From Rhodothermales bacterium (lineage in GTDB: Bacteria > Bacteroidota > Rhodothermia > Rhodothermales > Bin80): a stretch of DNA of 64,000 nucleotides. Position numbers and translations under genes: made by a program. Positions 1-31,363 of the stretch are shown here, one piece after another (the first letter of the stretch is position 1; each line of letters opens with the position of its first letter). Below the pieces are notes generated by a model. The model ran no database searches and was not told the origin of the DNA. It was given only the letters and a program-made list of their open reading frames with translations. Where the stretch lies: positions 2,796,450-2,860,449 of the forward strand of contig OZ244857.1 of the NCBI GenBank assembly GCA_965220935.1, in the 5' to 3' direction.

Positions 1-829
1 GGGATCAGAAAAACTTTTTTCTCCATCTTCGGTCGAACAAAAATCAGAAGAACTACGTCTCAGTGCATTTAATAATAAAGGAGACTCCGAAAAATCTCGC
101 ACCTTGATAACTAGGTATTTTGGACTCATTACTGATTTTCTAGCGCGAAGCATCGTGGCGTATATATCAACGGATGTGTATCCCAAATTAAAGGAAGCCA
201 ACCAAGAGTCACATCTAAAACTGAATATCCGTATCCAAGGTAATGGATGGAGACTTTGGTACGGTAGTTCTTCATACCCTGAAATTCAGAGTGAAATTGA
301 AAAAGCAATTAAATCAATTGCAAAAAAATTATTGAAAGATATAAAATCTGTTGATCCGTCATTGCACAGTGAAAAACCCGATTTATGGGTTCCTGACGGA
401 CAACTGCTTGGCCAAATAGAGCCCAAGGTAGGCCCAATTCTTAATGCCATTGGTAAGAAAAATATGGATCCTTACGAAACGGATGACAAATGTTATACAT
501 TCCCTTTGTGCAATGTAACACTTCTTGAGGGGACTAGTGAAGGAAAAAATCAGTGCAAAGACTGGTTTGCTACACTACCGTTCGCTGTTTCACCAAATAC
601 AAGACTCCAAATCGATAAATTTAGCCCCCCACTGAACCCTGATCATCTTCTTGTGACTCCCCAAGAAACCTATGAAGAGGTTGATACTCCCTGCATGAAC
701 AAAATTAATACACAAATTCAGAAACAACAAAACTATGATCCTACTCTTGGACTTTTTTCACCTATCGCCGCAATCATCTGGGAAGAGGTGTTTGGCTCAG
801 ACACATTCAAAAAATCTAATGAAGATTAA
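1..829 (+). CDS. 5'-partial hypothetical protein, possibly the C-terminal part of an actin/Hsp70-fold ATPase
   Basis: The frame of ORF 104..829 stays open back to base 2, so the gene starts before the window. IQGNGWRL and EPKVG loosely resemble C-terminal motifs of Hsp70/actin-like proteins (weak). Confidence 0.55.
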   Translation, partial: GSEKLFSPSSVEQKSEELRLSAFNNKGDSEKSRTLITRYFGLITDFLARSIVAYISTDVYPKLKEANQESHLKLNIRIQGNGWRLWYGSSSYPEIQSEIEKAIKSIAKKLLKDIKSVDPSLHSEKPDLWVPDGQLLGQIEPKVGPILNAIGKKNMDPYETDDKCYTFPLCNVTLLEGTSEGKNQCKDWFATLPFAVSPNTRLQIDKFSPPLNPDHLLVTPQETYEEVDTPCMNKINTQIQKQQNYDPTLGLFSPIAAIIWEEVFGSDTFKKSNED

Positions 830-879
830 CATTAACGTGGTCTTTAGACTTTCTAATTCCGCAAACTCTTAGCTGTACA

Positions 880-1299
880 ATGCATTTAAATTTCTCCGCA
901 GGACGACTGATTGAGATTGCTCAAGGTTCTCACCTTATCTATATAAAACATCCGATTCGGGCGCTCCTCAAAGGAGTGAAAAAGATCATTGATTTGATCA
1001 TGAATCTGTTCACGCCTCAACACTCCAAATCCGACTCTCTGGAGGGTTACCTCCTGCGTAGACTGAAAACGATTGTTGAGAATTTCCCGCAATTGGAATG
1101 CCCATTAACCAACCCCATTTCTGAGGAGCAAAAACCGCATTGGTCATCCTCTCACTCTATTGATTTAACTCGAGACAAATCGGATAATTACGCTGATAAA
1201 TTATATCTGAAAATACTTCAAGATTCCTTGTATATCACACAAGAGATCCTTGAAAAATTAAACTTAGAAAAACCTCTCATTTCACAACAATTACCTTGA
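880..1299 (+). CDS. hypothetical protein
   Basis: 139-aa ORF, co-directional and closely spaced within the 1-5220 cluster; no motif recognised. Confidence 0.5.
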   Translation: MHLNFSAGRLIEIAQGSHLIYIKHPIRALLKGVKKIIDLIMNLFTPQHSKSDSLEGYLLRRLKTIVENFPQLECPLTNPISEEQKPHWSSSHSIDLTRDKSDNYADKLYLKILQDSLYITQEILEKLNLEKPLISQQLP

Positions 1300-5220: not shown

Positions 5221-5341
5221 TTACCATGTTCAAAACTATAGACCACTCGCATCACCTTAATTCAGGGAATCCAGATTTACCCTTCCACCATGTCAAATCA
5301 ACTTGGATGAAAGTTTATGTCCAAAATTTGGGCCTCCCATT

Positions 5342-6485
5342 TTAAGAGTGGGTTGGCCGATTTTTGGTGCCTTCTGGATACACATCAAGTCCACCAAGAT
5401 AGAAGTAAATTGCATTCTTTAATCGTTCAGGATTTCTGAATCCACGCGCACGGATTTTGATCATTTTGATGCTTTCAGCCGGCCCATTACTCACATCTAG
5501 AACCACCGCATTGATCATGCCCCAAAGATGATTTCTAATGGTTTTAGCCACTTTTTTCATCGGTTCCAGACGACTGCGTGAGAGCCATCCTAACTTCCAC
5601 GCTTTGAGCGCCCAAGTGCGATGTTTATACTTCCACAGCGTCTGGAACACTTCTTTCATTGCCCGAGCGCGTGCTGTTTTTTAAGAGACTAAACCGCTTT
5701 TTTTGCTTGGCCCGATTCTTAAGCCAATCATACTTTGTCCCTACCAGATCCAGAATCCCCAGTTTCTTTAACGCACGATTCTCCTCTCTGCGAACCTCAT
5801 CTACCCCAGTTCCAACATATTTAGAGAAATGAAAATGATTAAATGCAATCTTGCATCGGGTCTACGCATCCTTGTTGCAGTGATGTAGGCAGGCCACATA
5901 TCCATACTCACATGTTCAATCCCTGCAATTTGCTCAGGTGAACAACGATCGTAGTACTAACTCTCTATTGTTGGTGACACATGTAACACCGTACCGATCC
6001 GATATAATCGTCACATAATTATGTCCCTTCTTGGATGCGGTCTCATCTACGCAGATGTGAGGCACGATCTTCTCTGGCTTGCGCTCCAATCCACGATCCA
6101 TAATATGAGCGATCATCGTCCAACTCACCCCTAAGCGTTTCGCGATCACTGAAATGCTGGTTGCAATCCATCACACAGCCTCAAACATGGACGTGAATTG
6201 CACACGAGCATCGGCCCAAGGAACCGAAATTATACTCACACCATGCTGTGGACACTGCACACGGGGCCACCTCCGTACGATAATCACAGATATTAGTATG
6301 GCGCCATCGGCGCTCTCGGTGATCATACCCCGGACACACCTTCCCACACTCCGGACACCTTAACTCCGCATCCCCCGAAAGCGCTACATGGATCCTCGCC
6401 GCATAACGACTCGTCTCCTGCTCAATCTCGGACACGGTGACGCAATACCAATCAAATGATTCATATCCGTTATTTTTAAAGCCAT
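5342..6485 (-). pseudogene. ISL3 transposase, multiply frameshifted
   Basis: Fragments in different frames: CPECGK..YDHRERRWRH (Zn finger), ICVDETASKKGHNYVT, SNGPAES..IKIRARGFRNPERLKNAIYF. Confidence 0.9.
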
Positions 6486-28069: not shown

Positions 28070-29905
28070 ATGATGTCAACAAATCCTGAGAAAACACCAA
28101 ATCTGCATTCTGATCGCAGTCATACATGTGGAGAACTCACTGATGCACACTTGGATCAGCAAGTGATCCTAAAAGGTTGGGTTGATACCCGACGTGACCT
28201 AGGAGGCGTCATTTTTGTGGATCTACGAGACCGATATGGACTTACACAGGTCGTGTTTTCACCTCAAAATAATGCTCAAGCTCATGAACTCGCCGATAAA
28301 CTACGCAACGAGTTTGTCATCTCTGTCGTTGGCTCTGTCGCCTTACGTTCAAAAGAAACGATTAATCCTAAGATCTCAACAGGGATGATTGAGGTTCGTG
28401 TTGTGGATCTGCTAATCCTATCTTTCTCTGATCCACTGCCATTTTCTATTTCAAGTCACACACAGAAGACAAAACTCGCATCCGAGGACTTACGTCTTCG
28501 GTATCGCTATCTTGATCTCCGCAGACCAACCCTCCAACAAAAACTGATTCTAAGACATCAAGCTTATCAGGTGATTCATCGATACTTTGATGATCAAGGG
28601 TTTCTGGAAGTAGAAACGCCAACCCTCATGAAATCAACCCCCGAAGGTGCCCGTGATTACCTAGTACCAAGTCGGGTCCACCCTGAATCGTTTTATGCCC
28701 TGCCTCAAAGCCCTCAAACCTACAAGCAACTTCTGATGGTCGGAGGCCTAGATAAGTATGTTCAAATTGTTAAATGCTTTAGAGATGAAGACCTGCGTGC
28801 TGACCGTCAACCCGAGTTTACCCAGATTGACATAGAGATGGCATTTGCAAACGAAGAAATGATTTATTCTGTCACCGAAGGACTCATGAAATCTCTTTGG
28901 CAGGATGTCCTCAATGTTACACTCTCGCCTCCATTTCCACGCTTAACCTATCAGGAGGCGATGTGCAAATATGGATCTGATAAGCCCGACATCCGATTTG
29001 ATCTTGAAATTTGCGACCTCAGTTCAGTCTTCAAAGATTCAGGGTTTCGCGTCTTTGATCAAACACTCTCTAAAGGTGGATCTGTCTTAGGACTTGTCAT
29101 ACCAACCTATGGAGATAAGGGGCGTGGGTATATGGATCGATTAGATAAGACGGTGGTCCAAAGGCAGATCGGCGCAGGCGGCCTGATACATATTCGGATA
29201 CCATCCGATGGAACAGCACCAAATTGCTCAGTCAAATCACATGTGCTTGCGGAATCCTTTGTTGAGAATGCAATTCAGTCCTCTGATGCTCAAACTGGTG
29301 ATCTCTTACTTCTGTTGTGTGGCCAGTGGCCTCATGTCCATCAACAGATGGGATCTTTACGACTGCACATGGCCAACGAATTGGGCTGTATTGATGAAGA
29401 TTTATGGAAATTTGTGTGGGTTACAGATTTTCCACTCTTAGAATTTGATCAACAACAAAACCGCTATTCTTCTAAGCATCATCCCTTTACTTCTCCAAAA
29501 CATGAGGATATTCCATTATTGGCAACCCATCCCGACCGTGTAGAGGCGCGTGCGTATGATATTGTCCTGAATGGCATGGAGATCGGCGGCGGATCCATCC
29601 GTATTCATGACCGAGAGATCCAAAAAAAGGTATTTGATATTCTTGGAATTTCGGAGGAAGAGAGCGAGGATAGATTTGGGTTTTTGCTTGACGCTTTCCG
29701 TTACGGTGCGCCGCCTCATGGCGGAATAGCCTTGGGACTTGATCGAATTGTCATGCTACTTTCTGGTTCCACATCTCTTAGAGAAGTGATTGCATTCCCA
29801 AAAACCCAAAGTGCCCAGGAACCAATGTCTGGCACCCCCGCAGCCGTAGACTCCGAGAGATTGAGCGAGCTAAATATTCAATCCGTTCCCCAGAAAGATG
29901 ATTGA
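28070..29905 (+). CDS. aspS: aspartate--tRNA ligase
   Basis: RDLGGVIFVDLRD, TPEGARDYLVPSR, FRDEDLRADRQPEFTQID and GAPPHGGIALGLDR motifs. Confidence 0.98.
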   Translation: MMSTNPEKTPNLHSDRSHTCGELTDAHLDQQVILKGWVDTRRDLGGVIFVDLRDRYGLTQVVFSPQNNAQAHELADKLRNEFVISVVGSVALRSKETINPKISTGMIEVRVVDLLILSFSDPLPFSISSHTQKTKLASEDLRLRYRYLDLRRPTLQQKLILRHQAYQVIHRYFDDQGFLEVETPTLMKSTPEGARDYLVPSRVHPESFYALPQSPQTYKQLLMVGGLDKYVQIVKCFRDEDLRADRQPEFTQIDIEMAFANEEMIYSVTEGLMKSLWQDVLNVTLSPPFPRLTYQEAMCKYGSDKPDIRFDLEICDLSSVFKDSGFRVFDQTLSKGGSVLGLVIPTYGDKGRGYMDRLDKTVVQRQIGAGGLIHIRIPSDGTAPNCSVKSHVLAESFVENAIQSSDAQTGDLLLLLCGQWPHVHQQMGSLRLHMANELGCIDEDLWKFVWVTDFPLLEFDQQQNRYSSKHHPFTSPKHEDIPLLATHPDRVEARAYDIVLNGMEIGGGSIRIHDREIQKKVFDILGISEEESEDRFGFLLDAFRYGAPPHGGIALGLDRIVMLLSGSTSLREVIAFPKTQSAQEPMSGTPAAVDSERLSELNIQSVPQKDD

Positions 29906-30338
29906 TGGATACGCCACACTATTAAAGGATCATTTCCCTTGGAAACGCTGGGAAAAACTCATTCTATCCGAAGGCGTGGAGCTGGATCGCCCTCAATCCA
30001 CTCCACATCCACGATATCCAGATATCATCTATCCTATGAACTATGGTTACATCTGCAATACGACGAGTTCTGATCATGCGGAGGTGGATGTGTTTGTCGG
30101 ATCTGGATGTCGTAAATTAAGTGGAATGATCGTGACCCATGACTACCGGCAAAAAGATCAAGAAATCAAACTGTTGTGGCGTTGCATTCCGTCTGAGATA
30201 TATATGGCTTATGGCTTCATCAACTTTGATCGCTCAAAACTGACAGGAGAGCTCGTGCTTCGCTATCCAATGAAGAAACTCTGGAAAATAATGAAACATT
30301 CAGAAGAGAATTCTGTAAGAGGTGAGTCAGTTCATTAA
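29898..30338 (+). CDS. small inorganic pyrophosphatase-like protein
   Basis: HPRYPDIIYPMNYGYI..TTSSD..VDVFVG resembles the family I PPase signature; overlaps the aspS stop. Confidence 0.65.
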   Translation: MIDGYATLLKDHFPWKRWEKLILSEGVELDRPQSTPHPRYPDIIYPMNYGYICNTTSSDHAEVDVFVGSGCRKLSGMIVTHDYRQKDQEIKLLWRCIPSEIYMAYGFINFDRSKLTGELVLRYPMKKLWKIMKHSEENSVRGESVH

Positions 30339-30354
30339 TTGTTCTTTACATATT

Positions 30355-30750
30355 GATCCCGTAGCTCAGTTGGAAGAGCATCTGACTTTAAGTCACGGAG
30401 CCTTATTCAAGAAACTGAATAAGTGGAGGCTGCTATATGCTGGAACCCCCTAAAGCCGTTGCTACGTCGTCACACGTAATAATGCAACGGATAACGATGG
30501 GCAATCAGCAGGCAACCTTGATTGGCCAGTTCTATCATCCCTAAACCGTGCCGAGTTTAGGGGAGTTTTCTGGTCGTATCTGCTGTACGGCGGATTCAAG
30601 AGAGCCCTCAGAGGCCATACGCGGCCCACCCGCCTTCATGATTATGAAAGGGTGAAGAGATGGTCCAGACCACAACACACTATGATGGCCGGTGAAAGCC
30701 GGTGTGGTAAGTTAATCAGAGGGTCCCAGGTTCGAGCCCTGGCGGGATCA
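30355..30750 (+). tRNA. tRNA-Lys(UUU), intron-containing (exons 30355-30388 and 30712-30750)
   Basis: Joined exons give a 73-nt cloverleaf: acceptor GATCCCG/CGGGATC plus A73, D-arm GCTC/GAGC, anticodon stem TCTGA/TCAGA with loop CT-TTT-AA, T-arm CCAGG-TTCGAGC-CCTGG. CCA is not encoded. Confidence 0.92.
30389..30711 (+). ncRNA. group I self-splicing intron (323 nt, no ORF)
   Basis: Follows exon U34 and ends in G. IGS GAG (30398-30400) pairs with exon CUU. P2 CTTATTCA/TGAATAAG; P3 GGCTGC/GCGGCC; P4 TGCTG/CAGCA; P7 GA-GGCCA/TGGTCC; P8 CACCC/GGGTG; J8/7 GAAGAGA; P9 with GAAA tetraloop. Confidence 0.93.
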
Positions 30751-30756
30751 CAACTA

Positions 30757-30840
30757 GCCCGGGTGGCGGAACAGGTAGACGCGCTGTCTTGAGGGGGCAG
30801 TGCCCTTACGGGCGTGCTGGTTCGATTCCAGTCCCGGGCA
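30757..30840 (+). tRNA. tRNA-Leu(GAG)
   Basis: GCCCGGG/CCCGGGC-type acceptor, anticodon arm CTGTC-TTGAGGG-GGCAG, long variable arm GCCC-TTAC-GGGC, T-loop TTCGATT. Confidence 0.95.
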
Positions 30841-30928
30841 CATCCACATGTTGTCATGCTCCTTACAGATCTGCTTGATCCATTATCGTGAGTGCACTTA
30901 CTGAAATCTGTGGCATGTAAAGATCACA

Positions 30929-31363
30929 ATGGATTCGTCCGCCCAATTCGTCCCGAAGTACAATAAACCAGAATCTCCTGGAGTCTGGATGAATTTTGAC
31001 AACTCTGTATCAATATACATGATTGTCACTCAAACGATGACCTTCGCCGAGGCGGCTCGGTCTGCATTTGATCTCCTTAAAGATGCACAGCATCGGTTCC
31101 CAGACTGGCCTCGCAACTTCTATCTTGACATTGACGGGCATCACCACCCTGAGCATGGCTTTCTTGATGATTGGATTGAATTTCAACAAGAGTTCTGGTT
31201 CTCTACACTCGCGCCATTTTTGACGGGATTTGATTTACCGCTGACGGGTCCATTACTTAATCCTGATGCACAGAAAAATAACATTCCAGATTCACTTGCT
31301 ATTCAAGGAGGAACTCAAATTCAGAGCAATGGAACCGTCACTAATGTTTTCAGTCATACATAA
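30929..31363 (+). CDS. hypothetical protein
   Basis: 144-aa ORF with protein-like composition, ending 8 nt before the ABC ATPase. Confidence 0.65.
   Translation: MDSSAQFVPKYNKPESPGVWMNFDNSVSIYMIVTQTMTFAEAARSAFDLLKDAQHRFPDWPRNFYLDIDGHHHPEHGFLDDWIEFQQEFWFSTLAPFLTGFDLPLTGPLLNPDAQKNNIPDSLAIQGGTQIQSNGTVTNVFSHT

Follow-up and report, generated by a model that had tools for sequence, protein, structure and literature searches.

A single-copy tRNA-Lys(UUU) gene with a group I intron in its anticodon loop, kept across a family of Rhodothermales-type bacteria

The window analysed here (the whole stretch of 64,000 nucleotides) belongs to the genome of a marine Rhodothermales-type bacterium, which is assembled into one contig of 4.08 Mb and rated 98% complete. 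Default ARAGORN finds 42 tRNAs in this genome, with no tRNA-Lys of either anticodon and no tRNA-Arg(tct) among them, and in the window it reports tRNA-Leu(GAG) only. Which gene, then, provides the tRNA that decodes lysine codons? A sequence-only reading of the window had proposed that a tRNA-Lys(UUU) gene of a Bacteroidota/Rhodothermota-like genome is interrupted at nt 34/35 by a group I intron that follows a U and ends in G. The host is indeed a Rhodothermales-type genome, and the ARAGORN call with introns allowed, the covariation and the match to RF00028 all agree with an intron of this kind at this position. We consider it highly probable (roughly 0.88) that 30355-30750 is a single-copy, essential tRNA-Lys(UUU) gene with a 323-nt group I ribozyme intron between U34 and U35. 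The parts of the gene and its nearest neighbour are as follows.

30355-30388, plus strand: 5' exon of tRNA-Lys(UUU), 34 nt with the end ...GACTT; nt 1-34 comprise the acceptor 5' strand, the D arm, the anticodon stem 5' strand and C32 U33 U34; the same or almost the same in 35 relatives.
30389-30711, plus strand: group I intron, 323 nt, first base T and last base G; full-model match to RF00028 and no ORF with a family match.
30712-30750, plus strand: 3' exon of tRNA-Lys(UUU), 39 nt starting with TTAATC, from U35 U36 to the discriminator A; CCA is not encoded.
30757-30841, plus strand: tRNA-Leu(GAG), 6 nt 3' of tRNA-Lys; the Lys-Leu pair is kept in relatives.

By direct reading, bases 30355-30388 joined to 30712-30750 give a 73-nt tRNA-Lys(UUU) with a canonical cloverleaf, the anticodon UUU and a Lys-type body. 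When introns are allowed, ARAGORN calls the same gene, tRNA-Lys(ttt) with a canonical cloverleaf and, between nt 34 and 35, an intron of 323 nt. Compared with the joined exons, five uninterrupted tRNA-Lys(ttt) genes that ARAGORN finds in other families of the order show 1, 3, 4, 4 and 6 differences in 73 nt, and the acceptor, anticodon and T stems covary in an alignment across phyla. The tRNA-Lys and tRNA-Leu(GAG) genes are probably co-transcribed. The genes upstream of tRNA-Lys are one of aspartyl-tRNA-synthetase type (28070-29905) and a small ORF; downstream, beside tRNA-Leu(GAG), come an ORF that matches no family and an ABC-transporter ATPase; these neighbouring genes have no functional tie to the intron.

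The splice register could be read from 36 family sequences. The last intron base is G in all 36, and the first base, T in 23 and C in 13, always pairs with a G, either as U·G or as C-G. With T or C as the first base and G always as the last, the 5' exon can only stop at U34. The final two bases are GG in 31 of the 36 and AG in the window and four relatives. A GG end allows two registers in which a U precedes the intron and G is its last base; the second of them, one base to the left, would give the anticodon GUU and thus a tRNA-Asn. Owing to these GG ends, most family loci receive from ARAGORN the label 'Asn(gtt) i(34)', which it also gives to eight further loci. In this second register, however, the AG-ending introns would finish in A, and the U33-A and U34·G pairs with an invariant GGAG are compatible only with a split at 34/35. 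In addition, the intronless orthologues, 1-6 nt different, are Lys(UUU), and tRNA-Asn(gtt) is encoded elsewhere in the genome, which would be left without any tRNA-Lys. We therefore regard the Asn register as practically negligible and retain the split between U34 and U35 of a tRNA-Lys.

We examined the insert in an alignment of 35 complete precursors from the bacterial family of the window, from which two loci cut by contig ends and a locus with a 691-nt intron were left out. The structure model on this alignment includes the tRNA stems and P1, P2, P3, P4, P5, P5a, P5b, P6, P7 (as a pseudoknot), P8, P9 and P9a. A second alignment contains 28 sequences across phyla. The elements of the intron are placed as follows, with counts for the two alignments in this order.

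30386-30400, plus strand: P1, formed between C32 U33 U34 plus the first intron nucleotide (30386-30389) and the internal guide GGAG (30397-30400); the wobble pair at the 5' splice site is U34·G, and both this pair and GGAG are found in 35/35 and 28/28 sequences.
30403-30422, plus strand: P2 hairpin, 30403-30409 with 30416-30422, GAAA loop at 30411-30414; both-sided change in 5 of 7 pairs, loop of GNRA type in all scored sequences.
30428-30433, plus strand: P3 5' strand, partner 30621-30626; 100% paired, the fourth pair across phyla being G-C in 13, A-U in 8, U-A in 6 and U·G in 1.
30439-30509, plus strand: P4 (30439-30443 with 30505-30509) with P5, P5a and P5b inside; P5 is 30448-30450 with 30499-30501; P4 and P5 are invariant and paired.
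30456-30462 with 30484-30490 and 30464-30467 with 30474-30477, plus strand: P5a and P5b; both-sided changes in 6 of 7 and 1 of 4 pairs, respectively.
30517-30600, plus strand: P6, 30517-30521 with 30596-30600, which covaries, and a lineage-specific extension at 30522-30595.
30613-30626, plus strand: P7 5' strand (30613-30618), two unpaired nt and P3 3' strand (30621-30626), the 'R' element; invariant in the 35 and the 28, aligned to the RF00028 consensus.
30627-30654, plus strand: P8, 30627-30631 with 30650-30654, distal part variable; 100% paired, the second pair across phyla being A-U in 18, G-C in 6 and G·U in 4.
30655-30665, plus strand: J8/7 and the P7 3' strand (30660-30665), the 'S' element; invariant, aligned to the RF00028 consensus.
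30669-30711, plus strand: P9 (30669-30674 with 30703-30708), P9a (30689-30692 with 30699-30702, GAAA loop at 30694-30697) and the terminal omega G at 30711; P9 and P9a covary.

The helices P2, P3, P4, P7, P8 and P9, which had been named from the single sequence, are all present, together with P1, P5, P5a, P5b, P6 and P9a. The core, made up of P3-P4-P6, P7-P8, the P3/P7 pseudoknot and J8/7, is 97-100% paired in the family set. Over the 35 sequences, standard pairs occupy 98.3% of 2940 cells, compared with 34-39% after a shift of the 3' partners by 1-3 columns, and the 21 both-sided pair changes are reached in none of 500 shuffles; for four of the five measures, 0 of the 500 shuffles reach the observed value. 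Compensatory changes within the family fall in P2, P5a, P5b, P6, P9 and P9a, and P3, P4, P7 and P8 are almost constant. Across phyla, 92.2% of cells are paired, and the count of both-sided pair changes is 34, again reached by none of 500 shuffles. The compensatory changes at this depth include P3, P6, P8, P9 and P9a, with one P9 pair being G-C in 22 and A-U in 6 sequences, while P4 and P7 are invariant across phyla and so uninformative for covariation. P2 and P5a are only 64% and 69% paired in the cross-phylum alignment; since both covary cleanly within the family, this is probably due to MAFFT register shifts between lineages. The P9a loop is GAAA in 34 of 35 family sequences, and across phyla it is GAAA in 16 and GAGA in 12. 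The minimum free energy of the whole precursor has a z-score of −3.58 against shuffles. Judged from these sequence comparisons, the insert is confirmed as a group I intron far beyond chance.

Two minus-strand ORFs that overlap the intron have no Pfam match. We also noticed a terminator-like hairpin at 30538-30563 (nine pairs followed by a short T-rich run) within the P6 extension; the region contains two terminator-like sites where 0.6 are expected, which may be chance.

The gene is easily overlooked. The gathering score of RF00028 is 50 bits, and a permissive search of 501 nt (30300-30800) matched model positions 1-253 to 30379-30686 at 44.9 bits (E = 2.7e-10). The expected hit to the group I model thus exists over the full length of the model, and it remains below the cut-off of the family model. 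Such a score is to be expected because the RF00028 seed has no bacterial intron (10.1101/2020.01.27.920355). At gathering score, Rfam returns only tRNA-Leu(GAG) at 30757-30841 in the window, and a scan of the whole genome at this score likewise leaves the window intron unreported. None of ten Lys introns that we tried is found by RF00028 at gathering score; with permissive searching, eight of the ten loci give 32.5-54.1 bits, and the one of the ten above 50 bits is seen with permissive filters only. Two introns that carry endonuclease genes (L038 and L124, described below) give no match to RF00028, presumably owing to their large insert. The prediction of the sequence-only reading that standard callers would miss the gene therefore holds, as both default ARAGORN and Rfam at gathering score are blind to this tRNA-Lys. 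According to passages of PMC8450103, tRNAscan-SE was not designed for such introns.

Is this gene the only source of tRNA-Lys? Neither BLAST with each exon nor a scan for Lys-type anticodon arms recovered a second tRNA-Lys gene in the whole genome, which settles the question, raised by the first reading, of another Lys(UUU) gene: the interrupted gene is the sole tRNA-Lys. Since the genome has no other, it must supply all lysine decoding. This provides strong indirect evidence, of a genomic kind, that the precursor is spliced in vivo. It also bears on whether the locus might be a pseudogene with an inert insertion, or an artefact of assembly, a notion in line with default callers seeing no gene here. 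A dead locus would hardly be the only tRNA-Lys of a complete genome, and in 36 independently assembled genomes the exons are near-invariant and the insert shows compensatory changes, so that we give this explanation almost no weight and treat the locus as a working gene.

Metatranscriptome contigs from four runs, 90-95% alike and from relatives, contain exon 1, intron, exon 2 and tRNA-Leu in unspliced form. A 65-nt contig from a size-fractionated metatranscriptome (run X20 record 12, aligned to window 30712-30746) consists of an adapter, GACTT and then directly the 3' exon. It has the predicted junction and three mismatches in 35 nt to the window, and may derive from an intronless tRNA-Lys of another organism; it looks like a 3' fragment of a tRNA-Lys with a spliced or uninterrupted junction. 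A scan for sigma-70 promoters over 30150-31000 returned no site, the scan being uninformative for this phylum.

Self-splicing without a protein helper is assumed here from the behaviour of the intron family. Many organellar group I introns need protein help for splicing, and the core of this intron might likewise be intact and yet depend in vivo on a host protein, such as a chaperone or a maturase-like factor. Several features would suit such a dependence: the low RF00028 scores of the whole Lys lineage (32.5-54.1 bits, where the genome's two other tRNA introns reach 69.1 and 56), the short P1 and the short P10 (at most 1-2 bp), and, in the window copy, an A-C pair that closes the P2 loop and a C-C at the outermost P5 position. 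However, conservation across phyla, accompanied by compensatory changes, extends to all core helices, J8/7, the guide and the terminal G; the intron of the window encodes no protein; and classical bacterial tRNA introns self-splice in vitro. We thus find a need for a host protein unlikely, and the pathway below is given for an intron that would act as a ribozyme by itself.

In the proposed pathway, which follows the established group I scheme, the precursor would be transcribed, probably jointly with tRNA-Leu(GAG), and the intron would fold into P1-P9 with the P3/P7 pseudoknot, stabilised by the GNRA loops of P2 and P9a. The guide GGAG would pair with C32-U33-U34, and U34·G would mark the 5' splice site, where a free guanosine bound in P7 would attack 3' of U34. 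The terminal G (30711) would then replace the guanosine, and the freed 3'-OH of U34 would attack after the terminal G, yielding joined exons with the anticodon loop CU-UUU-AA. Because P10 is weak, the exons would probably be held by the anticodon stem, which would form alongside P1. Modification of the wobble base would take place only after splicing; since the splice junction lies at the wobble base, which bears a key modification in Lys-tRNA, the order of splicing and modification is testable.

How widely is this intron distributed? All 36 other family genomes compared, which represent 12 genera, have the full-length Lys precursor with its intron. In 24 other families of the order (one genome each), the intron is present in 1 of 24, and many of the others have an uninterrupted Lys gene (five read). 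Among 301 genomes across the phylum, three intron matches were obtained, all in the window's own family, and the other 298 genomes gave none. Next to these, an orphan piece was noticed in L167 (G033:C1:49600-51400, locus 817-927, minus strand), which is 76% identical to P2'-P3-P4-P5-P6 of the Lys intron; tRNA exons and the P7 element are missing from it, RF00028 gives no match, and it may be a decayed or truncated copy of the intron.

We used the 20-mer 30603-30622, which overlaps the 'R' element, as a probe for all species genomes, and found it in at least 119 stretches. Judged by record title, the 80 matches listed comprise about 12 Rhodothermales/Bacteroidota MAGs, about 65 Thermoleophilia, two Chloroflexota and one candidate division KSB3. 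The Thermoleophilia (Actinomycetota) among the matches listed include Solirubrobacterales, Thermoleophilaceae, Conexibacteraceae and the isolate Svornostia abyssi J379, in whose class 5 of 251 genomes have the intron. Nearly all listed matches are tRNA-Lys(UUU) genes of the form ...ACTT/intron ending in G/TTAATC..., in which the intron measures 236-270 nt and the tRNA body is of the type usual in the host phylum. The Rhodothermales copies are set apart mainly by a P6 extension of 75-170 nt, which is absent from the Actinomycetota and Chloroflexota copies. In comparisons between phyla, the core shares 56-69% identity with that of the window intron, and the exons share 61-70%; because the core is about as diverged as the exons, the cross-phylum copies are old rather than recent transfers. 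The 20-mer has no match in viral contigs, and no phage vehicle was found.

Two of these loci differ at the junction. In the KSB3 MAG (L097, about 5275-5680), an intron of the same lineage, with the 20-mer core and 36 bits to RF00028, resides in an apparent tRNA-Lys(CUU); by reading, the gene is apparently split after U35, one base 3' of the usual site, with a guide that is one base longer, and ARAGORN miscalls it as Thr(cgt). In a Thermoleophilaceae MAG (L079, about 620-940), the intron end reads ...CAG and is followed by TTTAATC, so a 7-nt loop calls either for a split after U33 or for an intron that ends in U at the usual site; this may be a one-base junction variant or a sequencing error.

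Two members of the lineage carry a gene of their own. L038, from another family of the order Rhodothermales, has a 691-nt intron with a sense-strand ORF of 177 aa in P6 (130-663, minus strand), and L124, an Anaerolineae MAG, has a 698-nt intron with a sense-strand ORF of 190 aa at the same place (379-951, plus strand). Both ORFs extend into P7-P8, so that the C-termini are encoded by the ribozyme core. They match the PD-(D/E)XK endonuclease family PF11645 in Pfam (E = 1.5e-22 and 8.7e-20) and are 52% identical to each other. A direct PDB search with one of the ORFs gave no match; with a profile of the two sequences, the best match is 2ost_A at a weak E of 0.044. We take 2OST to be I-Ssp6803I, the endonuclease of the cyanobacterial tRNA-fMet intron. 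In the family member L035, remnants of the N-terminus and the middle of the ORF persist, with an internal deletion, and in the window copy the only endonuclease match lies where the ORF overlaps the ribozyme core; the window intron has no homing endonuclease gene. From this we infer that the lineage was once mobile and that the window copy is not autonomously so, being an endonuclease-free, fixed and vertically inherited member of an endonuclease-borne lineage specific for the anticodon loop of tRNA-Lys.

The tRNA-Lys is not the only split tRNA of this genome. Two further genes (loci L044 and L045) are interrupted.

G000:C1:3310888-3311227, plus strand: initiator-type tRNA(CAU) with a 267-nt group I intron, 56 bits to RF00028; ARAGORN miscalls it as Leu(caa).
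G000:C1:3655405-3655677, minus strand: tRNA-Arg(UCU), sole copy, with a 197-nt group I intron after nt 36, 69.1 bits to RF00028.

By reading, the tRNA(CAU) gene has an initiator-like body and is split after U33. The genome has three uninterrupted CAU tRNAs, none of them initiator-like by eye, and the split gene is apparently its sole initiator tRNA gene. At G000:C1:3425092-3425163 (minus strand), ARAGORN calls a 72-nt 'tRNA-Met(cat)' whose unusual body is unlike that of the other two CAU tRNAs; it may be an Ile2 tRNA, an odd elongator or a false call. Homologues of the introns occur in 37 of 38 family genomes for tRNA(CAU) and in 38 of 38 for tRNA-Arg(UCU), some weak matches being cross-matches between the two introns. 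Like the Lys intron, both lie in the anticodon loops of single-copy tRNA genes and are kept across the family; in contrast to it, they are shorter, occupy other positions in the loop, pass the RF00028 cut-off and lack the P5a/P5b arm. The Lys intron is ~73% identical to both over J6/7-P7-P8-P9. GNRA loops on P2 and P9a are typical of Azoarcus-type introns, and these loops, together with the 73% identity in the 3' core, would be in keeping with subgroup IC3, with the P5a/P5b arm as an addition.

To what extent is the intron new? The classical settings of bacterial tRNA introns are Leu, Arg, fMet and Ile2, with introns of subgroup IC3 (10.1101/2020.01.27.920355); the Lys host is outside these four settings, and the kind of intron itself is classical. 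Compared by features, the intron of bacterial tRNA-Leu(UAA) is the same kind of ribozyme at the same insertion point, nt 34/35 after the third loop nucleotide, and has a U before it, a G at its end and a short P1 made with loop nucleotides. The Lys intron differs in its host tRNA, in its P5a/P5b extension and, in this family, its long P6 extension, in its score below the RF00028 cut-off, and in its hosts, which are Rhodothermales, Thermoleophilia and Chloroflexota. The Synechocystis tRNA-fMet intron with the PD-(D/E)XK enzyme I-Ssp6803I resembles the Lys introns L038 and L124 in that these contain a PF11645 endonuclease; in contrast to it, the target would be tRNA-Lys, the hosts are a genome of the order Rhodothermales and an Anaerolineae MAG, and the window copy has no endonuclease gene. 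Close homologues of I-Ssp6803I are described as generally cyanobacterial in the parts of PMC3384342 consulted. Cyanobacterial tRNA inserts of 22-49 nt, including one in tRNA-Lys(CTT), are named 'group I introns' in PMC5733544; inserts of this length are far too short for ribozymes, and we regard them as something different.

A closer precedent is Williams 2020 (10.1101/2020.01.27.920355), in which RF00028, run on 80,413 bacterial genomes with a threshold of 18 to 20 bits, raised the number of intron/tRNA settings from 4 to 21. It deals with the same class of element and also combines sub-threshold RF00028 with ARAGORN split-tRNA calls and a junction with U before and G at the end. Its pipeline would probably have caught Lys introns in its genome set, because those tested here score 32-54 bits, and the Lys setting is rather likely to be already among its 17 new settings. 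The novelty that the sequence-only reading saw in a Lys(UUU) host is thus not established. In the literature searched, a comparison made with sources other than the list of 17 settings, we found no paper on a catalytic group I intron in a bacterial tRNA-Lys, and 'Lys' does not occur in the review PMC3984707. The text of Williams 2020 does not treat dependence on a single-copy gene, nor, for a Lys intron, its covariation, endonuclease content or spread across phyla. We have endonuclease-borne group I introns that are specific for the tRNA-Lys loop, occur in at least four phyla and evade tRNA callers and Rfam; that this lineage as a whole has escaped earlier report seems doubtful. The interest of the locus lies additionally in the single-copy dependence, the family-wide trio of interrupted tRNAs, the endonuclease-associated lineage across phyla and the gap in annotation.

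This gap has consequences beyond one locus. As default tRNA callers and the Rfam cut-off miss the gene, the genomes of the whole family, and some of Thermoleophilia and Chloroflexota, will be annotated without tRNA-Lys(UUU). For the window genome, tRNA-Lys of any kind, an initiator tRNA and tRNA-Arg(UCU) would all seem to be missing, and inferences about completeness and codon usage are distorted. The lineage also displays endonuclease-bearing and endonuclease-free stages in distant phyla, which makes it of use for studies of the homing cycle and of PD-(D/E)XK specificity.

For the bacterium itself, a regulatory role of the intron is very unlikely on present evidence. The locus offers a clear example from nature of an essential tRNA, with one gene copy, that would depend on a ribozyme and has been kept in this state across a bacterial family. 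If the reading is true, the fixed introns of tRNA-Lys, of the apparent initiator tRNA and of tRNA-Arg(UCU) would make initiation and two codon families dependent on ribozyme catalysis, and translation capacity could be coupled to the supply of guanosine nucleotide or Mg2+.
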